From Blastocatellia bacterium (GTDB lineage Bacteria > Acidobacteriota > Blastocatellia > UBA7656 > JADIYM01): DNA of 64,000 nucleotides. Shown piece by piece: positions 911-60,101 of the stretch (the stretch's first letter is position 1; the number at the start of each line of letters is the position of its first letter). The notes below the pieces were generated by a model. The model saw only the letters and a list, made by a program, of their open reading frames with translations. It was not told the DNA's origin and did not search any database. The stretch lies in the NCBI GenBank assembly GCA_021463145.1, contig JAJTWZ010000006.1:17485-81484 (forward strand), written 5' to 3'. The translations under genes were made by a program, and so were the position numbers.

Positions 911-1040
911 GGTGTCTCGAGTCGCAGGTTGGATTCAGGTTGAAGCCAGGAGGGGAAGGCCGCCGAAGCGGCCTGAATCGGGAATCGGGGGCCTGAACAT
1001 GACGACGGGAGGTGCGACCGCTCCGCGGCCGGGATCCCAT

Positions 1041-1250
1041 TGGGGTGCGTACCCGGCTACGGCGGTGAGCGTAGCGATCCGCCGTAGCCCCGGCTATCGT
1101 CTGTGACCGCTTCGCGGACCAGTCGATCCGGAGCGGTCGATGAAATAGCCGTGGGTCGCGCGCAGGCGAGGGTAACGAGCCTCCGCGCGCGACCCCGCGG
1201 AACCGCCGGCCTTGTCGCGCCGACCGCGGAGCGGTCGCACCGTTTGGCAG
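1041..1250. repeat. GC-rich palindromic structured repeat, copy A. It has a perfect 11-bp stem hairpin (1055-1089) followed by a core hairpin flanked by GACCGC-N3-GCGGTC motifs.
   Basis: About 85% nucleotide identity to 38237-38346. The ggctatcgtctgtgaccgcttcgcgg segment is also shared with 38484-38512 and 50926-50955. Internal inverted repeats include gggtcgcgcgc/gcgcgcgaccc. Confidence 0.8.
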
Positions 1251-1796: not shown

Positions 1797-4700
1797 ATGA
1801 GATCACGAAAGCGCAGAGGCGCGACGAGGGCAGCGAGCATCCTGCTTGCAGTCCTGGTCGCGACGACCGCCGTCTTCCAAAGCTCCGTCTCCGCGCAGAC
1901 CGAGACGGGTCAGATATCCGGAACCGTGACCGATCCACAGGGCGCCGTAGTCGCCGGTGCGACGATCACGATTCAATCGAAGGGAACGGGTGCAGTTCGC
2001 ACGCAGCGTTCGACCGGCGATGGTTCCTACATCGTCTCGAATCTGCAACCCGGCGACTACGAGGTGAAGGTCGAAGGCAGCGGCTTTGGCGTCAAGACCG
2101 TTCCGGTCCGCGTTACCGTCGGCACGAGGACCACGGTCGACGTGACGCTCGAAGTCAGCGGCTCCGGTGACGTCGTCGACGTCGTCGCCGGCGACCAGGG
2201 CGTCCAGGTGAATACCGAAAACCAGGTGCTCTCGACCGTTGTCAGCGAAAAGCAGATCAAGGAACTGCCGACGATCACGCGCAATCCGTACGCGCTCGTT
2301 CAACTAGCGGGAACGGCCGTCGCGGTCGATCCGGAAGCCCAGGATCCGAACACGACGACGTCCGACCGCGGCGCTGGCTTCAACATCAACGGTCAGCGTT
2401 CCTCGAGCACCAATGTCATGCTAGACGGCGCGGACAACAACGACACGTACGCGTCGGACATCGGCAATGCGGTTCCGCTGGACTCGGTCCAGGAATTCAC
2501 CGTGCTGACGAACAACTTCTCGGCCGAATTCGGCCGTGCCGGTGGAGGAGTCGTGAACGTTGCGACCAAGTCGGGCACGAACGATTTTCACGGCACCGTC
2601 TACGAGTTCAACCGGATTTCGGCGCTCGCCTCCGAGAGCGCGAACCTCAAGGGACAGTTCGTTCCAACCAAGAAGGGCGTGTTCACACGCAACCAGTTCG
2701 GTTACTCGGTTGGCGGCCCGGTCATCAGGGACAAGGTCCATTTCTTCCAGTCGACGGAATGGCTGCGGGTCCGCAGCCGCGACACGGGTATCGCGCTCGT
2801 GGCTACGCCGGAACTGCTCTCCAGAACGCCTGCGAACGTGCAGCAGTTCTTCGCGCCGTTCGGGCTCGTCGAGTCGTCCCTTGGCCGCGTTTTCACCGTT
2901 GGCGACATCGGCGGTACTCCCGGCGGACCGTTCAACTCGCTCGATCCGAACCTGCCGGCTTTCCAGGAGGTGTTCTACTCGGTGCCTGCGGATGCCGGCG
3001 GCGGCTTCCCGCAGGACCAATACCAGATCGTCGGCCGCGGCGACTGGAACATCAGCGACCGCACGTCGATGTACGGACGCTACGCTTACCAGAACGTAAA
3101 CTTCGAACAGGGGGCACTCTCGTTCAGCCCGTACGCGGGCTTCAACACTCCGGCGCTCACTCGTAACCACAACTTCCTCGTTTCGATGACGCACGTGTGG
3201 AGCGACAGTCTCGTCTCGCAGTCGAAGTTCGCCTACAGCAGGGTTGCAAACGACCAGCCGCTCGCAGAGCAGCCGGCCACGCCGTCGCTTTACCTGCAGC
3301 AGAACATCAAGTCCACTCTCCTCGGCCGCGACGTCGCGCTGCCGGGTTACTTCCCGTTTTCTCCATCGGCGGCGATTCCCGCCGGCGGCCCGGCGAACAT
3401 GTTCCAGTTCTACCAGGACCAGACCTGGACGCTGGGCTCGCACGCGGTCCGCTTCGGCGGTTCGTTCATAAGGATTCACGACGACCACTTCTTCGGAGCA
3501 TTCCAGTCGGCCGTCGAAGAACTCGGTGGCAGCGCGTTTGCCGGCCTGGACAACCTCGTCCTCGGTCAGACGGCCCGCTTCCGCGTTGCCATCGATCCCG
3601 ATGGCGCCTACCCGGGCGGAACCGTGCAGTATCCGGTGAGTGCGCCGCAGTTCCTGCGAAACAACCGTTACAACGAAGGCGCGCTCTACGTGAACGATTC
3701 GTGGAAGATCCATCCGCGCGTCACGCTCAACCTGGGCCTTCGCTGGGACTACTTCGGCGTGCAGCACAGCACGGATCCGAGCCTCGATTCGAACTTCCAC
3801 CTCGGCAGCGGCGGTTCGATTTACGAGCAGATCCGCAACGGACAGGTGTTCGTTTCCGAAGACAACCCGGCTGGCGGACTCTGGAACAAGGACAACAACA
3901 ACTTCGGACCGCGCGTCGGTATCGCGTGGGACGTGTTCGGCGATGGAAAGACGTCGCTTCGCGGCGGCTACGGCATCTCCTACGAGCGCAATTTCGGCAA
4001 CGTGACGTTCAACGTCATCCAGAATCCGCCTAACTACGCGGTGCTCGACCTCATCAACACGGTTCCGATCACAATCGGCAACTTCGGTCCCGCATCGGGA
4101 GGCGACGGCTCGTTCACGCTTCCGCGGACCAGTCTCAGGTACGTCGACGAGAACATCAAGACGGCGTATGCCCACTTCTGGAGCGCTTCGATAGATCACG
4201 AGCTCCTCGGCGGCCTCGTCGGTTCGATCGAGTATTCCGGTTCGAAAGGCGTCGACCTCTACTCGCTCGAGGACCTCAACGGTCCGGCGTCGGCAATTCA
4301 CTACGGTCTGCCGCTGAGCCCCGGGTCCAACGGACGGCTCAACGAGCAGTATTCGGGCATCAATGCGCGCCGGAACGGCGGCTTCTCGACTTACAACGGC
4401 CTCACGTTCGGCGTCCAGTCGCGTCACTTCAACACGACCGGGTTGCAGTTCATGGCGAAGTACACTTGGTCGCACGCGATCGACAACCTGTCGTCTACTT
4501 TCAGCGACGGTTCCAACCTCTTCAACCTTGGCCTGCTCGATCCGTTCAATCCGGAACTGGACAAGGGCAACGCCGACTTCGACGTCCGCCACCGCTTCAT
4601 CTCGAGCGGTATCTGGGAAGTGCCCTTCGCAAAGGACACGGACGGATGGCAGAAGCACCTGCTCGACGGATGGCAGGTGAGCTACATCTTCAATGCTCGA

Positions 4701-38002: not shown

Positions 38003-38214
38003 CCTTCTGGTGGAATCGTGGAGATGTCGGCCATATCGCGTGGACCCCAGGTCGCCGGCAGGCGCTACTTCTTGAAATACCGGATGGTATTTCCGTCCGG
38101 AAGCACAAGATGACACGGCCATCTTGAAGCACCGGATCGCCCTGCCGCTTTGCAGCACCGGATCTCCCTGCCATTCTTCAAGTTCCAAAGAGGCGAAAGT
38201 ACCGGAGCCAGCCG

Positions 38215-38600
38215 TGGGGCGTGCGCGGACGAGTCCGCGACCGCGGAGCGGTCGATAAAATAGCCGTGGGTCGCGCGCGGCGAGTGCAACGAGCCGCAGC
38301 GCGACCCGCGGAACCGCAGTCCCAACCGCGCCGACCGCGGAGCGGTCGCACTTTCACCATCGTGACGAACACGCTGGAACTCGCATCCTTCGAGAATCAA
38401 TGCGACCGCTCCGCGGTCGGAATCCTCCTTGGTGTGCGAACCGGGGGTGACGGCGGATCGCTTCGCTCACCGCCGTGACCCCCGGCTATCGTCTGTGACC
38501 GCTACGCGGTCCAGGCGTCGCCGGGATCCTCCGCGACCGCGGAGCGGTCGATAAACCAGCCGTGGGTCGCGTGCGGCGAGTGCAGCGAGCCGCAGCGCGT
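38215..38600. repeat. Composite tandem copy (copy B) of the palindromic structured repeat family. It has a full core, the reverse-complement terminal motif, a second hairpin module and a truncated core.
   Basis: 38237-38346 is about 85% identical to 1126-1247. 38433-38512 is shared with 1055-1120 and 50876-50955. It contains five GACCGC-N3-GCGGTC palindromes. Confidence 0.85.
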
Positions 38601-38626
38601 CTGGCGAGACGGCCTTTCATCTTTCG

Positions 38627-39463
38627 TCACGGTTCGACTGCAGGAGGCGCCTGGACCGGTGGAGGCTTGTCATCGGCACCGGACTCGGGCGGAGAACCTC
38701 CATCGTCGGGCAGAACCGTGATGTTGCCGGTGAACTGCTTGTAGTCCATGTACTTGACCACCAATCGCACGGGTATGTCCGACTCTTCGAACGCGAGCAC
38801 GTCGTCGGCATAGGTGTACGTGGGAAACCAGTACTTGCCGTCGATGTTCTCGCGGTAGGTCTCGAAGCGCGGATAGCGGTTGTTGTCGATCTCCGGTCCC
38901 GCCTTTCCCGCGGCCTTTACGATCATGAAGTCCTGATCCTCGACCCACACCCGCCCCACGAAATAACGCTCCCTTCTCTTGGCCAGTCCGTTAGGATCCT
39001 TCGGCGCAACGCTGAAAACGTAGGTATCGATGTCGTCGATCTTCTCGCGGCCGACCATCTGGACGTTGTATTTCGGTAGTTCCTCAGCAGTCAGGGCAAA
39101 CGGCTGGATGATGCCCAGATCCTCGAGGTCGGTCTGGGTGAAGACGAGTCCCCTCAAAGTCGAAGGAGGGAAATAGGTGATCCGTTCGGTACGCTGGCCG
39201 GTGTCGGTGAAGATGATCTCCGACACCCGGTGGAACACCCCGGTCACGCTCGGGCCGGCCATCGTCTGCAGGAGCACGTCCTGCCTGAACGTATAATTCG
39301 TTCGCGCGTCGCGCAACCGCGACTCCGCCTGCGTGAATCGCCGGATGACGTCGGCCTCGTTGGGCGTGATCCCGCCTCGTTGCTGCGCCGAACTGACCGC
39401 GCCGGCAATGGCGACGCACGAAACCACGACGAAAACTCTTCGAATGCGATGAGACAAACACAT
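38627..39463 (-). CDS. Exported LolA-like (outer-membrane lipoprotein-sorting family) protein with a Pro-rich C-terminal tail (tentative)
   Basis: A signal peptide MCLSHRIRRVFVVVSCVAIAGAVSSAQ is present. The C-terminal region YFVGRVWVEDQDFMIVKAAGK… resembles LolA-like fold proteins. The assignment is weak. Confidence 0.5.
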   Translation of the reverse strand: MCLSHRIRRVFVVVSCVAIAGAVSSAQQRGGITPNEADVIRRFTQAESRLRDARTNYTFRQDVLLQTMAGPSVTGVFHRVSEIIFTDTGQRTERITYFPPSTLRGLVFTQTDLEDLGIIQPFALTAEELPKYNVQMVGREKIDDIDTYVFSVAPKDPNGLAKRRERYFVGRVWVEDQDFMIVKAAGKAGPEIDNNRYPRFETYRENIDGKYWFPTYTYADDVLAFEESDIPVRLVVKYMDYKQFTGNITVLPDDGGSPPESGADDKPPPVQAPPAVEP

Positions 39464-39534
39464 CTGACCGATCCCCCCATTCCTGGCACGAAACGTCCGG
39501 ACGCCGATGACCTTGCGCGATGCCCGCGTTGCAA

Positions 39535-40383
39535 TCACACGCTCTTCGACGGATACGGCGACAATAGATAGCTGCAAACGGCAATCTTCTGACCCGGTTC
39601 GACGGCCGCCGACTCGCCCGTGTAGACCTCGACGTCATCGACGAAAATTGAATTCCGGCCTTCGCACGTGACAACGAAAGCATCTCCCTGCCGTTCAAGT
39701 GACGCGTGATGGCGGCTGACTTCCAGATCGCCTTCCAGCCGGAGGTCCACGGCCGTCTGCTTGGAACCACGTCCGATCGTTATGCGGCCTTTGAAGAACT
39801 CGCGCTCGTCTCTCGGATGAGGTGACGTCGTTGCTTCCCGCGTCACCGATACCGTGAAAAGCGGCGTCCTGGAAATCGGGGAGCAACGCGGCCTGACGAT
39901 CGTAGCGTCCTCCTCGGCGGCCGGTTCCGGACCTCGCGCAGCCTTCGAAGGCCGTGCCTTCACCGTGGTCCGGTCCGAGGACTTGTCCCAGACGGGCTGT
40001 ACTCTGAAAGCGTTACGCTCGAGCGTGCCGTCGGTGCGCAACTCGATGACGAAGGAGGAAGTCTGAAACTCAGTGGTGCCGGACAGCTGGGCCGCACGGT
40101 GACTGAGGACGTAGTGAAGTCCGCGCTCCAGTCCCTCGCGCTTCTCGCCCTGCCAGTCCGTGTCGTCGTCAGGACTCAGGAAGACAATGTACTCGCGAGG
40201 AATGTAGGTTGGCCCGCCCGGGGGCGTAAACATCTCGCGCTGCATCACGCCCTCGACCTCACGCGCGATCTGCACCATGAAGTCTTCCCACTTGCTTCGG
40301 GGGCGCGGTTCGTCGTTTGCCTGAGTCGCCTCTTCGCCGTCCAGCCATCGCCGAAATCCCTCGACGAGATCCTGAAGTCCCAT
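39535..40383 (-). CDS. FhaA-like protein (DUF3662 N-domain plus C-terminal FHA phosphothreonine-binding domain)
   Basis: The N-terminus MGLQDLVEGFRRWLDG is DUF3662-like. The C-terminal FHA block is ITIGRGSKQTAVDLRLEGDLEVSRHHASLERQGDAFVVTCEGRNSIFVD. RBS ggagga is present. Confidence 0.8.
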   Translation of the reverse strand: MGLQDLVEGFRRWLDGEEATQANDEPRPRSKWEDFMVQIAREVEGVMQREMFTPPGGPTYIPREYIVFLSPDDDTDWQGEKREGLERGLHYVLSHRAAQLSGTTEFQTSSFVIELRTDGTLERNAFRVQPVWDKSSDRTTVKARPSKAARGPEPAAEEDATIVRPRCSPISRTPLFTVSVTREATTSPHPRDEREFFKGRITIGRGSKQTAVDLRLEGDLEVSRHHASLERQGDAFVVTCEGRNSIFVDDVEVYTGESAAVEPGQKIAVCSYLLSPYPSKSV

Positions 40384-45175: not shown

Positions 45176-45260
<85 letters not shown>

Positions 45261-50758: not shown

Positions 50759-50824
50759 CGGGTAGTCGTTTCGCGCCGGCCGCCTGGCGGTCGCCCGGTC
50801 ATTCTCGCGATGAGCACGGTGGAA

Positions 50825-50960
50825 GCTGGTTCCGATCAAAGATCGGTGCGACCGCTCCGCGGTTGGGATGGTGGCGGGCGAGTTCCGGGGGTGACGGCGG
50901 AGCGCTTCGCTCACCGTCGTGCCCCCCGGCTATCGTATGTGACCGCTTCGCGGTCCAGTC
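50825..50960. repeat. Palindromic structured repeat family, copy C (reverse-complement terminal motif plus hairpin module)
   Basis: 50841-50955 aligns to 38400-38512 and to 1055-1120. It contains gcgaccgctccgcgg and gaccgcttcgcggtc palindromes. Confidence 0.8.
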
Positions 50961-51016
50961 GAGTCTGGCCCGCCAGCGGCTGAGCGGTCGATCCGTTGCC
51001 GGCGCGCCTTGCCGGT

Positions 51017-57230: not shown

Positions 57231-60101
57231 ATGAACGCGACATCAACCCTTTCGAATCGGTTTCTGGCCGTTGCCGTAACCGCACTCGTGGCCCTTCCGC
57301 TCATTCCGACCGCGATGCCCGCATCAGCGTCGGTTTCGTCGCACGTCCACACCGCGTCCGCTTCGATCGACGCCGCCGTCGAGACCTCGACCCGGCGCCG
57401 CGACGGCCTTCCGCTGGCCTACGAAACGAATCGTGGCCAGGCCGACGCCTCGGCCCTCTTCGTTGGCCGCGGCAACCGCGTCCGCGTCGCGCTCACGCGC
57501 ACGTCGGCCGTTTACACGGTGACGGACGGCGACGTCGACGCCTCGGTCGCGATGTCGTTCGGTGCCACGAACACCACGACAGTGGCCCCGGAAGGCGAGC
57601 CCGTCGGCATGGCGAACTACTTCCGCGGCCCGCGCGAGTCGTGGATGACCGAAGTCCCGTCGTTCGGCCGCATCCGCTACAACAGGGTCGCCGACGGCAT
57701 CGACGCGGTGTTTCACGGCGTCCGCAACGCGCCGGAGTTCGACTTTCTCGTCGCGCCGGGCGCGGACCCGTCCGCCATCGCGATGATCTTCGACGGCGCC
57801 GGGTCGGTGACGCTCGATGCGAACGGCGCGCTGAGCCTCGCGACGGCCGCGGGCGACATCGTCCTGAACGCGCCGGTCCTCTATCAGGTTATCGACGGCG
57901 AGCGCCGGCCGGTCGACGGTGCATTCCGTCTCGACGACGGCCGCGTGCGGCTCGACGTCGGCCCTTACGACGCGTCGCACCAGCTCGTGATCGATCCGGT
58001 CATCGACTATGCGACCTACGTCGGCGGCAATGGCGACGACCGTGTCGAGGACACGAAGATCGACTCGAACGGCAGCCTCGTCCTCACCGGCTCGACGCTC
58101 TCGTCAAACTTTCCGGTCATCGGCGGCGTGAGCAACAACCTGTCGGGCATGGACGCCTTCGTCACGAAGATCGGCCCCGGCGGCGTCGACTTCGCCTTCT
58201 CGACGTACCTCGGCGGCAACGGCACCGACAACACGAACGGACTCGCCCTCGACGGCGGCAAGATCTACCTCGCCGGATCGACGTCGTCGGGTGACTTCCC
58301 GACGGTCAACGCGTACGACAACAACCCGAACGGGCTCGACGCATTCCTGACGGTGCTCAACGGAACGGCCTCGTCGATCCTGTACTCGACCGTGATCGGC
58401 GGCGGCAACAACGACATCGGCAACGCCGTGGCGGTCGACGTGAACGGCAACGCGTTCCTCGCGGGCGAGACGCTCGAAACCGGGCTCTTTGGTGACTTCC
58501 CGACGAAGAGCCCCTCGAGCCTCGATCCGTTCCAGAAGAACTTCGGCGGCGGCCGCTCCGACGCGTTCGTCTGCAAGTTCGATCCGGACGAGTCCGGTAA
58601 CACGTCGCTCGTGTATTCGACGCTGCTCGGCGGCTCGGAGGGTGAAGGCGTCGAAGACATCGCCGTAGACGCGAACGAGCGCGCGTACGTCTGCGGCTAC
58701 ACCGAGTCGCCGGACTTCGACCGGCTGAACGCGGTGCAGAACACCTACGGCGGCGGAACGACGGACGGCTTCGTCACGAAGTTCAACGCGGACGGCACGA
58801 CGGTCTTCTATTCGACGTTCATCGGCGGCAGCGCCAGTGACGAGATGCTCGGCATCGCCCTCGATCCGGCGAACCCAACGCTGCCGACGATCGCCGGGTT
58901 CACAACCTCGACGAACTTCCCGACGAACTCGCCGGTGCAGTCTGCAAAGAACGGTCCCCAGGACATGACCATCACGAAGCTCAACGATGCCGGAACGGTC
59001 CGCACGTTCTCGACATACTGGGGAGGCCCCGGAAACGATGCGGCGAACGACGTCTCGTTCGACTCGCTCGGAAACGCGTACGCCGTCGGCTTCAGCAACA
59101 ACGCCTTCCCGCAGGTCAATGCGCTCAGCTTCAGCACAGGGACGGGCGTTGCCTTCGTCCAGATCAGTCCCGCGAATGCGGTCGCCGTTTCGTCGACGAT
59201 CGGGATTTCCGGAAACGGGTTCGGCATTGGCGTCGATGCCGGTGGCGACCTCTACTTCGGCGGCACGACGAGCGCCACGAACCTGCCGACCACCATCGGC
59301 GCGGCCCAGCCGTCGTTCGGCGGCGCGCCGAACGACGGATTCGCCGTTCGCGTCGACCGCGTGAACGACGACACGGTCGGGGTCTTCCGCGCAAGCACGG
59401 ACCTCTACACGCTGAAGAACGCGAACATCGTCGCGACGCCTCCGGTGTCGGCGACGCTTCAGGCCTCGCCAGATCTGCCCGTGGCCGGCGACTGGGACGG
59501 CGACGGCATCGACACGATCGGCGGCTACAACAGCGCGACCGGCCAGTTCCAGCTTCGCAACTCGAACGACACGGGCTCGCCCGACATTTCGTTCGTCTTC
59601 GGCGCCGGCAGCCAGATTCCGATTGCGGGCGACTGGGATGGCGACGGCACGGACACGATCGGAGTCTTCGATCCGGTAAACATGGCGTTCTTCCTGAAGA
59701 ACTCGTTCACGAAGGGCAACGCCGACATCGCGTTGAACTTCGGCGCGGCGGGTCAGGGTGCGGTTCCGGTCGCCGGTGACTGGAACGGCGACGGCATCGA
59801 CACGATCGGCCTGTTCATTCCGGGCACGAAGACGTTCCAGCTGCGCAATTCGAACACGAATGGCGGCGCCGACCTGACGTTCGTCTACAGCGCGTTCGGC
59901 GGCGGCGGCTTCCTGAAGCCGGTCACGGGTGACTGGAACGGCGACGGCGTCGACACGGTCGGCCTGATGGTCCGTGCGTTCATCGGAACGTCGACGCGGT
60001 TCTCGCTCCGGAACTCGAACTCGGCCGGTCCGGAGAATCTGTCGGTGGCGCTTGGAACGATCTCGGATTTGCCGGTCATCGGCAACTTCGACGGCCGATA
60101 G
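57231..60101 (+). CDS. Large secreted SBBP (beta-propeller repeat, PF06739-like) protein with C-terminal FG-GAP/VCBS-like GDWDGDG repeats
   Basis: A signal peptide is present. The SBBP motif recurs (DAF[VL]TK… [FY]STY[LI]GG…D). There are five C-terminal repeats of about 45 aa (GDW[DN]GDGxDT[IV]G… F.LRNSN). Confidence 0.8.
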   Translation: MNATSTLSNRFLAVAVTALVALPLIPTAMPASASVSSHVHTASASIDAAVETSTRRRDGLPLAYETNRGQADASALFVGRGNRVRVALTRTSAVYTVTDGDVDASVAMSFGATNTTTVAPEGEPVGMANYFRGPRESWMTEVPSFGRIRYNRVADGIDAVFHGVRNAPEFDFLVAPGADPSAIAMIFDGAGSVTLDANGALSLATAAGDIVLNAPVLYQVIDGERRPVDGAFRLDDGRVRLDVGPYDASHQLVIDPVIDYATYVGGNGDDRVEDTKIDSNGSLVLTGSTLSSNFPVIGGVSNNLSGMDAFVTKIGPGGVDFAFSTYLGGNGTDNTNGLALDGGKIYLAGSTSSGDFPTVNAYDNNPNGLDAFLTVLNGTASSILYSTVIGGGNNDIGNAVAVDVNGNAFLAGETLETGLFGDFPTKSPSSLDPFQKNFGGGRSDAFVCKFDPDESGNTSLVYSTLLGGSEGEGVEDIAVDANERAYVCGYTESPDFDRLNAVQNTYGGGTTDGFVTKFNADGTTVFYSTFIGGSASDEMLGIALDPANPTLPTIAGFTTSTNFPTNSPVQSAKNGPQDMTITKLNDAGTVRTFSTYWGGPGNDAANDVSFDSLGNAYAVGFSNNAFPQVNALSFSTGTGVAFVQISPANAVAVSSTIGISGNGFGIGVDAGGDLYFGGTTSATNLPTTIGAAQPSFGGAPNDGFAVRVDRVNDDTVGVFRASTDLYTLKNANIVATPPVSATLQASPDLPVAGDWDGDGIDTIGGYNSATGQFQLRNSNDTGSPDISFVFGAGSQIPIAGDWDGDGTDTIGVFDPVNMAFFLKNSFTKGNADIALNFGAAGQGAVPVAGDWNGDGIDTIGLFIPGTKTFQLRNSNTNGGADLTFVYSAFGGGGFLKPVTGDWNGDGVDTVGLMVRAFIGTSTRFSLRNSNSAGPENLSVALGTISDLPVIGNFDGR

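Follow-up and report, generated by a model that had tools for sequence, protein, structure and literature searches.

A REP/REPIN-like family of three-hairpin repeats in a Blastocatellia genome, probably derived from the ends of an IS200-like Y1 transposase unit

Introduction

The association of repetitive extragenic palindromes (REPs), and of the doublets that they form (REPINs), with REP-associated tyrosine transposases (RAYTs) is the main bacterial example of a vertically inherited, domesticated transposase–repeat partnership. It has been studied almost only in Proteobacteria and for class-2 RAYTs. The REP/BIME and REPIN–RAYT repeats of E. coli, Pseudomonas and Stenotrophomonas are extragenic palindromes that carry an unpaired, AG-ending tag at the 5' foot (PMC3116915, PMC3733652, PMC8266576). 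Here, a family of GC-rich repeats with the same two properties is described in a 64,000-nucleotide stretch (the window) of contig JAJTWZ010000006.1 from a Blastocatellia bacterium. The repeats are probably a REP/REPIN-like non-autonomous family whose origin lies in the structured termini of an IS200-like Y1 (HUH) transposase unit.

Y1 transposases are also found in systems of other kinds. In the IS200/IS605 insertion sequences (IS608, ISDra2 and the gene-less PATEs), a Y1 HUH transposase acts on subterminal hairpins of single-stranded DNA, no target-site duplication is made and internal-deletion derivatives occur, and in these respects they resemble the system reported here. Di Nocera et al. 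(2013; PMC3733652) record GTAG-tagged REPs in Planctomycetes and Verrucomicrobia and also 'TIRtrons', including some in Acidobacteria. Among the TnpA-Y1 proteins classified by Quentin et al. (2018; PMC6006769), subclass 1.2 is characterized as low-copy, mainly cyanobacterial and Bacteroidetes, without typical IS200 terminal structures and 'REP: no'. The acidobacterial repeat family is now tied to this IS200-like subclass, which the main phylogenomic survey recorded without flanking structures or REPs.

Results

Repeat copies in the window

The exact palindrome GACCGC-N3-GCGGTC was found at seven sites in the window, with 0.06 expected, and none of 100 shuffled sequences reached seven. The GC-rich palindromic structured repeat family proposed in a preliminary description of this DNA is therefore real. 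All seven sites are intergenic and confined to three loci, 1016-1240 (locus 1), 38239-38600 (locus 2) and 50850-50992 (locus 3). When up to one mismatch was allowed, 11 sites were found (1.3 expected), 10 of them inside the three loci; the eleventh, GGCCGCCTGGCGGTC at 50778-50792, has one mismatch and was found some 50 nt upstream of locus 3. Locus 2 holds five exact sites (at 38239, 38333, 38404, 38497 and 38535), as the preliminary description had counted, and their loops read GGA in three and TCC or TAC in two, which gives both orientations.

The window contains in total seven copies or fragments of one module of about 105-110 nt, in two subtypes (A and B) and in both orientations (Table 1). 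Module identity between loci is 88-97% as given by a repeat finder, and every copy is intergenic and outside every large open reading frame (ORF). The core of about 110 nt at 38239-38347 (A) recurs in locus 1 and, truncated, at the end of locus 2, while the module at 38404-38511 (B) recurs in loci 3 and 1. Recurrence at the other two loci had been noted correctly, but the two modules had been taken as distinct kinds. A search with the A unit (nhmmer) finds the B units on the opposite strand, so that B is an inverted, diverged homologue of A, and both have in common the pattern hairpin, CC(A)CGGCTAT, 6-7 nt, GACCGC-N3-GCGGTC.

The copies are arranged differently in each locus. In locus 1 a B module on the minus strand is followed by an A module on the plus strand with their H1 ends joined (H1, H2 and H3 being the three hairpins of the module, described below), giving an H1-to-H1 dimer of 228 bp with terminal inverted repeats TGCGACCGCTCCGCGG / CCGCGGAGCGGTCGCA. 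Locus 2 reads A(+), 56-nt spacer, B(-) and then A(+) truncated inside H2 (-> <- ->), of which the first two modules make up a 273-bp gene-less inverted doublet of REPIN-like form. Locus 3 has B(-) followed by an A stub of 11 nt (<- ->). The kinase gene next to locus 2 is also carried by short-read contigs of this genome, and these stop about 20 nt inside the first module, a break that a multi-copy repeat would be expected to cause.

Table 1. Repeat modules and associated features, with the window hits of covariance model R1 (R1 is described in the text; hairpin positions of minus-strand modules are given on the plus strand)
Feature	Position	Strand	Details
B module, complete (locus 1)	1016-1119	-	H3 1016-1030 (GACCGCTCCGCGGCC); H2 1053-1093; tag GGCTAT 1092-1097; H1 1105-1119 (GACCGCTTCGCGGAC); DNA fold z = -3.7
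A module, H1 cut to GGAGCGGTC (locus 1)	1129-1240	+	H1 remainder 1130-1138; tag ATAGCC 1145-1150; H2 1149-1200; H3 1222-1236, then GCA; nhmmer E 1e-25
Two direct copies of GCACCGGATC(G/T)CCCTGCC, 26 nt apart	38129-38172	+	between kinase stop and first module
A module, complete (locus 2)	38239-38347	+	H1 38239-38253; tag ATAGCC 38260-38265; H2 38264-38311; H3 38333-38347; DNA fold -45.9 kcal/mol, z = -5.7
Spacer between facing H3 hairpins, 56 nt	38348-38403		place of Y1 transposase gene or pseudogene in relatives
B module, complete (locus 2)	38404-38511	-	H3 38404-38418; H2 38441-38485; tag GGCTAT 38484-38489; H1 38497-38511; 38400-38517 folded as DNA: exactly three hairpins predicted, z = -4.8
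A module, truncated in 3' arm of H2 (locus 2)	38535-38600	+	H1 38535-38549; tag CCAGCC 38556-38561; 88% over 84 nt; similarity fades at about 38600, 27 nt before stop of ORF 38627-39577
B module, complete (locus 3)	50850-50955	-	H3 50850-50864; H2 50885-50929; tag GGCTAT 50928-50933; H1 50941-50955; repeat-finder identity 92%
11-nt fragment GAGCGGTCGAT, rest of A module joined H1-to-H1 to B (locus 3)	50982-50992	+	by eye against 1130-1141 and 38244-38254; weak (short)
R1 hit 1	50955-50850	-	33.2 bits, E 5.6e-6
R1 hit 2	38511-38404	-	29.8 bits, E 3.2e-5
R1 hit 3	38239-38347	+	12.9 bits, E 0.19
R1 hit 4	1119-1016	-	10.1 bits, E 0.82
Second module family of CAZQBW01 (outside the window)	L070 4876-4958; L032 7403-7606; L038 150-231; L043 7384-7468; L016 491-574; L095 4738-4821		found with R1

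Module architecture

On the top strand the basic module, about 85-110 nt long, reads H1, a stretch of about 8-10 nt that ends in the AG tag (ATAGCC), H2, a spacer of about 20-21 nt, H3 and then GCA. H1 is the 15-mer palindrome, formed by a 6-bp stem and a GNA purine triloop (GACCGC-GNA-GCGGTC), and H3 is the same 15-mer. H2 is a long hairpin of 45-50 nt. The hairpins fold as the preliminary description had stated, and the DNA folds of five modules have z-scores between -1.7 and -5.7. Unusually stable DNA mini-hairpins are formed by GNA purine triloops with a closing C-G pair, d(GCGAAGC) being reportedly the case described by Hirao and co-workers. The GGA, GAA and GTA loops of the window presumably belong to this type.

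Two variations within the hairpins were observed. The H2 apex of the locus-1 B module (1059-1091) is the reverse complement of the apexes at 38444-38476 and 50888-50920 (33 nt, 91% complementary), with stem and flanks unflipped, which puts a GCGAAGC-type mini-hairpin on the opposite strand. An inversion of the hairpin top is as expected from template switching or from recombination across the stem. At the outer end of the A modules, TCCGCG-AC-CGCGGA overlaps H1 (GACCGC-GGA-GCGGTC) at 38231-38253 and 38527-38549, so that two mutually exclusive small hairpins are possible there. The TCCGC prefix before H1 is also kept in several relatives (loci L034, L059 and L014).

Modules of the same structure flank Y1 transposase genes

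A scan of GTDB species genomes with the pattern GGCTAT-N6,7-GACCGCTNCGCGG gave at least 95 loci, and copy numbers derived from it are lower bounds. The conserved string GGCTAT-N7-GACCGCTNCGCGG adjoins an intact Y1 gene in locus L015 (Pirellulaceae SH449); in L028 (Verrucomicrobiota) and L040 (Fimbriimonadaceae) the adjoining homologue is frameshifted or interrupted. In L015 an intact ORF of 150 aa lies between two module doublets, and its product matches Pfam Y1_Tnp (8e-23, 81 bits). The frameshifted copy in L028, which ends ...AFDERYFWD before its stop, abuts the module. In L040 (metagenome-assembled genome (MAG) DATJYD01, 650-1772), two modules lie ahead of the interrupted Y1 gene (about 880-1337, lacking any one intact reading frame) and three behind it, in one orientation; the small hairpins read CACCGC-N3-GCGGTG there, and a spurious 269-aa ORF with a repeating peptide reads through the array.

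The L015 protein falls below the NCBI IS200 equivalog cut-off (NF033573, 49.9 vs 55 bits) and far below that of the NCBIfam REP_Tyr_transpos model (23.2 bits vs 80), and is thus not of the RAYT type. Its Y-motif is YIxNQEEHH, compared with YxxxNP in class-2 RAYTs. The nearest solved structure is that of ISHp608 TnpA (E 6e-4), a binder of hairpins in single-stranded DNA. The search for homologues yielded 2,907 at E<=1e-10, nearly all of 150-151 aa. In alignment A1, made of 17 homologues, the conserved positions are D55 H56 V57 H58, W95 Q96 and Y115 I116 Q119 H122 H123, followed by a C-terminal tail with F128...Y139 G140...E145 R146. By these motifs, rather than by phylogeny, the protein fits subclass 1.2, whose signature in the published subclass description is DH[IV]H, WQ, YIxNQxEHH, a length of about 148-150 aa and a conserved C-terminal tail of about 30 aa.

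The DNA on either side of such genes was compared in metagenome contigs, where at least 80 loci with a Y1 gene were found and 69 were used. Between the upstream and downstream 200-nt flanks, inverted repeats scored above every shuffle in 61 of the 69 loci, with median scores of 65 for inverted, 23 for direct, 16 for shuffled and 19 for cross-locus comparisons. Only 7 of the 69 cross-locus scores were above threshold, every locus having its own matching pair. A three-hairpin finder (AG followed by an H2 stem of >=6, H1 and H3 stems of >=5, 160-nt flanks) detected the module in 81 of 148 gene-proximal flanks (55%), in 31 of 1,764 distal windows (1.8%) and in 7 of 740 shuffles (0.9%). The distance from H3 to the gene has a median of 18 nt.

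The flanking modules covary as structures. In alignment A2 (78 modules), 96.3% of the stem cells are paired vs 75.3% in shuffled alignments, a percentage inflated by the choice of modules with a hairpin-finding script. There are 286 compensatory, double-sided changes vs 84 shuffled, and the covariation score is 0.584 vs 0.196 shuffled (0/500), falling to <=0.12 when the alignment is slid. The AG and the first C of the stem (AGC) are invariant in all 78 modules, and the two bases before them vary (AT, AC, CC, TT and others); the tags of the window read ATAG or CCAG. On the tag strand the loops of H1 and H3 are 90-94% purine, GAA occurring in 31 and 60 of the 78, respectively. Across lineages the H1 stem reads GCGCC/GGCGC, GCCCT/AGGGC or ACCGC/GCGGT.

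The exact GACCGC motif was rejected as a universal partner of the Y1 gene, since it was found in only 5 of the 80 metagenome gene loci listed. The conserved feature is therefore the structure and not that sequence. The 15-mer 'palindrome' is one lineage's version of the small hairpin, and the core of about 110 nt is one end-module of the Y1-transposase unit.

Recovery of the window modules by a covariance model of gene flanks

Covariance model R1 was built from the A2 gene flanks only, without any sequence of the window lineage, and was run unfiltered on both strands (128 kb searched). The four highest-scoring hits in the window, the first two of them significant, all fall on modules, and each alignment runs over the full length of H1-tag-H2-H3 (Table 1). 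The earlier call of a REP/MITE-like, non-coding, multi-copy element is supported and can be narrowed to homologues of the modules that flank Y1 genes. That description had set its repeat family against known terminal repeats of an insertion sequence (IS). The modules are in part just that, since they form the ends of a Y1-transposase unit; this origin accounts for the repeat family and leaves it standing.

Relatives carrying the repeat

The matches to the pattern are of two classes. In the first, among the matches listed, the units are 80-90% identical to the A unit of the window and were found in a Blastocatellia MAG (JADIYM01) and in the MAGs CAZQBW01 and CAZXLQ01, often at contig ends and as inverted pairs. 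At least dozens of pattern matches are present in CAZQBW01. In the second class the 3' motif is shared but the hairpin ahead of it differs in sequence; this was seen in Pirellulaceae, Planctomycetaceae, several Verrucomicrobiota, Acidobacteriota, Armatimonadota and a Muribaculaceae MAG. The close family, aligned as 36 units (A3), has 97.6% of its cells paired and 18 compensatory cells vs 4.7 in shuffles. The organism of the window belongs to the Acidobacteriota by its phosphoglycerate kinase as well, which has 79% identity to proteins of Blastocatellia MAGs and 63-66% to those of Pyrinomonadaceae.

CAZQBW01 and CAZXLQ01 are titled 'uncultured Clostridia bacterium'. They are of 63-69% GC and have repeats and pseudogenes in common with the Blastocatellia MAG, so that this label looks wrong. 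Two contigs with the repeat, L059 (Hydrogenedentota, 1.2 kb) and L067 (Frigidibacter, about 2.5-2.6 kb), are probably mis-binned. A cross-phylum spread of the 80-90% family was rejected as a labelling artefact, given the doubtful MAG labels and the short contigs.

Inverted doublets are found in L015, L019, L088, L095 and other loci. In the closest relatives, inverted pairs of A units enclose internally deleted Y1 transposase pseudogenes (L078, L066, L034 and L014). The remnant between the A units of L078 translates as RLIEVYLHIVF/RRVSYGEEFVSLLEKHGVAYDARYLWD up to a stop, that of L066 retains the HUH region ENHVHTL, ...AVNGTENHVHTLVSLGRT..., and that of L034 retains ...NEHRRRVSYDEEF...YDARYLWD. 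At least four decayed copies of the Y1 gene (L014, L034, L078 and L088) are present in one MAG. An internal-deletion derivative of about 70 nt, making a 300-bp doublet, lies at distinct loci with unrelated flanks in CAZQBW01 (L095, L055) and JADIYM01 (L088), and L093 of CAZQBW01, cut by a contig end, is probably another. The presence of the same 300-bp derivative at distinct loci in two genomes indicates that the gene-less doublet was amplified after gene loss.

Some features of these relatives go beyond the doublets. CAZQBW01 also has a second, more canonical module family with R1 scores of 30-53 bits (Table 1). As it stands beside the GACCGC type, several module lineages coexist in one genome. 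In L095 the 300-bp doublet has a small hairpin repeat, GAGCCCACGGCGTAAGCCGTGGGACT, on both borders (4300-4347 and 4648-4680). This repeat might represent another type of REP or mark a favoured landing site. In L014 (6737-7271), upstream of the doublet that contains the pseudogene, two A units lie in the same orientation with a 134-nt period and a degenerate 15-mer, GACCGCGGAGCGGTT, before each. Arrays therefore also grow by tandem duplication.

Discussion

Favoured reading and proposed mechanism

Locus 2 is a BIME/REPIN-like cluster of end-modules from which the gene has been lost. In the parental unit, two inverted modules would have bracketed the transposase gene with H3 beside the gene. Loss of the gene would leave inverted doublets such as 38239-38511; alternating arrays (-> <- ->), truncated copies and H1-to-H1 dimers like that at 1016-1240 would arise in later events. 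A gene copy at another place in the genome may provide a Y1 enzyme in trans. The hairpins and the unpaired tag would be recognised on single-stranded DNA, for example on the lagging-strand template, and cutting and rejoining through a 5'-phosphotyrosine would then spread the doublets. Mobilisation in trans, the strand used and the cleavage site are suggested by analogy with IS608 TnpA and the E. coli TnpA-REP (PMC3479197, PMC8266576).

Several results weigh against the derivation of the repeats from a mobile Y1 unit. The 64-kb window contains no Y1 homologue detectable by tblastn with the L015 protein and 80 metagenome homologues, and the fetched loci of the closest relatives hold Y1 pseudogenes only, so the family may now be immobile. 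Around ten doublets no target-site duplication or common target was found. The inverted ends differ from the canonical single-strand 'peel and paste' pathway of IS608. Of the four R1 hits in the window, those with E 0.19 and 0.82 are marginal when taken alone, and the model missed the A copy at 1129-1240, whose H1 is truncated. The A2 modules were selected by their hairpins, a bias that is not shared by the positional enrichment or by the inverted-flank result. The 56-nt spacer of locus 2 holds no gene remnant: local alignment scores against the pseudogene remnants of relatives were <=23, which is noise level, and a match by eye of the spacer to the 5' untranslated region of the L078 remnant failed on alignment.

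Comparison with described systems

The repeats are like REP/BIME elements in their inverted doublets and in alternating arrays of two subtypes, as with the Y and Z REPs of BIMEs. They are also like REPtrons, with a Y1/HUH gene bracketed by inverted units (in relatives and metagenomes, not in the window) and gene-less doublets that were amplified. The tag is GTAG in classical REPs and NNAG here, the first two bases (GT) not being conserved, and the unit is a composite of three hairpins of about 85-110 nt instead of a single stem-loop of 20-40 nt. Compared with RAYTs, the protein is IS200-like (Y...Q..HH, 150 aa), and relatives carry several decayed gene copies per genome. Unlike the ends of IS608, which are two different hairpins on the same strand, the flanks here are inverted repeats. 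No tnpB turned up in the fetched loci, though no search aimed at tnpB was made. The inverted ends are REPtron-like and the several decayed gene copies per genome are IS-like; the system therefore lies between REPtrons and insertion sequences.

Resemblance to the TIRtrons is partial. According to their description by Di Nocera et al. (PMC3733652), these are Y1 genes flanked by long inverted repeats, some of them self-complementary, in moderately abundant families with dimers and clusters. Identity with TIRtrons and their proteins (TIRYTs) was rejected, since those proteins are mostly of subclass 2.1 with helix-turn-helix (HTH) tails: in the subclass assignments of Quentin et al. (PMC6006769), 20 of 26 TIRYTs fall in subclass 2.1, with HTH C-terminal domains. 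The GGGGWSAS terminal motif of TIRYT repeats was not noticed by eye in the modules, no search for the motif being made. The doublets also have the size (100-300 bp), non-coding and intergenic nature, terminal inverted repeats (TGCGACCGCTCCGCGG...) and long-hairpin folding of miniature inverted-repeat transposable elements (MITEs), ERIC and Correia elements. They differ from classical MITEs in the lack of a target-site duplication at the ten doublets, in having a Y1/HUH unit instead of a DDE transposase as parent, and in an internal architecture that is conserved as structure across phyla.

With regard to subclass 1.2 as described by Quentin et al. (PMC6006769), the structured inverted flanks in most metagenome loci are a departure, and the hosts named here include Planctomycetota, Verrucomicrobiota, Acidobacteriota and Armatimonadota. 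A wider and more tentative proposal, which has somewhat less than an even chance of being right, is that subclass 1.2 proteins are the partners of a distinct three-hairpin repeat class across phyla, with REPIN-like expansion in some Blastocatellia genomes. This would be a second, independent partnership of REP–RAYT type beside that of the class-2 RAYTs. Its phyla may comprise Planctomycetota, Verrucomicrobiota, Acidobacteriota, Armatimonadota and probably Bacteroidota, and the module may be conserved as structure and partly as the sequence GGCTAT-N7-GACCGCTTCGCGGTC. Among the known REPs and REPINs with a Y1 partner, a three-hairpin module linked to this Y1 subclass appears to be a variant not described before. 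No paper with these sequences was found when the 15-mers were searched in full-text literature in DNA and RNA spelling.

On its own, the feature in the window is an ordinary selfish repeat. The definition of the module as a covariance model (H1, AG tag, H2, H3) can be searched for in any genome and makes the function of an orphan HUH subclass directly testable. It also explains fragmented short-read assemblies, spurious small ORFs and 'palindrome array' calls at such loci.

Alternative explanations

The strongest competitor is that the repeats are inert relics, namely single ends, and bodies with internal deletions, left by an IS200-like IS that once moved as a whole (module-gene-module), with neither mobilisation in trans nor present activity. 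The pseudogene-only doublets of the closest relatives would fit this, the four or more decayed gene copies in one MAG look IS-like and unlike a single-copy domesticated transposase, and each metagenome locus has its own matching flank pair, with few cross-locus matches. Nevertheless, several unrelated sites in two species carry one and the same gene-less 300-bp derivative, alternating-orientation arrays and H1-to-H1 dimers are present in all three window loci, and at least dozens of copies break the CAZQBW01 and CAZXLQ01 assemblies. Amplification after gene loss is implied by these three observations, and the relic explanation is considered unlikely.

A role at the RNA level, with the hairpins serving in termination or in protection of 3' ends from exonucleases, or a small structured RNA family, is less probable still. 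The preliminary description had placed all loci at gene ends, consistent with terminator or mRNA-stability elements. Loci 2 and 3 do lie between convergent genes and the hairpins are stable, and effects of E. coli REPs on mRNA turnover have been reported (PMC3479197, PMC3733652). But locus 1 follows a phosphodiesterase-like ORF and precedes the gene of a TonB-type outer-membrane protein, the two running in the same direction, and both module orientations occur within one locus. A terminator scan gave one site vs 0.8 expected in shuffles, with the tail CATTGATTCT and no T-run, and promoter signatures were not above chance.

The Rfam/Infernal check advised earlier, run on the window, the locus and related loci, returned nothing relevant. 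At the gathering threshold the window yielded a single tRNA, and the 19 related loci yielded no match. At E<=10 the locus gave implausible sub-threshold matches only (mostly microRNA precursors, with VA RNA and two sRNAs besides), of the sort to be expected from generic long hairpins. Modules of this architecture also stand, inverted, on either side of a transposase gene, which speaks against an RNA family of its own; the hairpins may have a secondary, exapted effect on RNA.

It had also been suggested that the 15-mers form an array of operators for a dimeric regulator that binds double-stranded DNA, with half-sites GACCGC/GCGGTC. Perfect 6-N3-6 dyad symmetry and five sites in 310 bp would suit such an array. 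However, the position of the 15-mer in other lineages holds hairpins of unrelated sequence with compensation (closing pair GC:44, AU:24; third pair CG:38, GC:32), the purine bias of the loops is strand-specific, the sites keep fixed distances from the tag and the long hairpin, and no regulator gene is linked. The 15-mer is not a double-stranded operator but a covarying small hairpin, and the array is very improbable. That the repeats encode small Arg-rich proteins, such as the ...ATHGYFIDRS... peptide, is hardly credible: it is possible to draw ORFs of 64-111 aa through the locus, but the copies stand in both orientations, are truncated at arbitrary points and lie outside every large ORF, and their variation keeps base pairs and not codons.

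Neighbouring and other features of the window

The intergenic gap at locus 2, earlier given as about 390 bp, runs from 38003 to 38626 (624 bp), and the repeat makes up about 370 bp of it. The ORF at 38627-39577, earlier labelled LolA-like, has no Pfam match at E<=1e-5. Between the kinase stop and the first module, GCACCGGATC(G/T)CCCTGCC has two matches (Table 1) vs 0.03 expected, with no others in the window.

Within the ORF at 57231-60101, four direct repeats of about 48 nt at 59478-59966, spaced by 141-153 nt, encode ...GDW(D/N)GDG(I/V)DT(I/V)G.... They look like FG-GAP/VCBS-type protein repeats, that is, ordinary coding repetition unrelated to the modules. A single tRNA gene of 82 nt at 45176-45257 (Rfam tRNA, 50.6 bits) is long enough for a class II tRNA and has no adjoining module.

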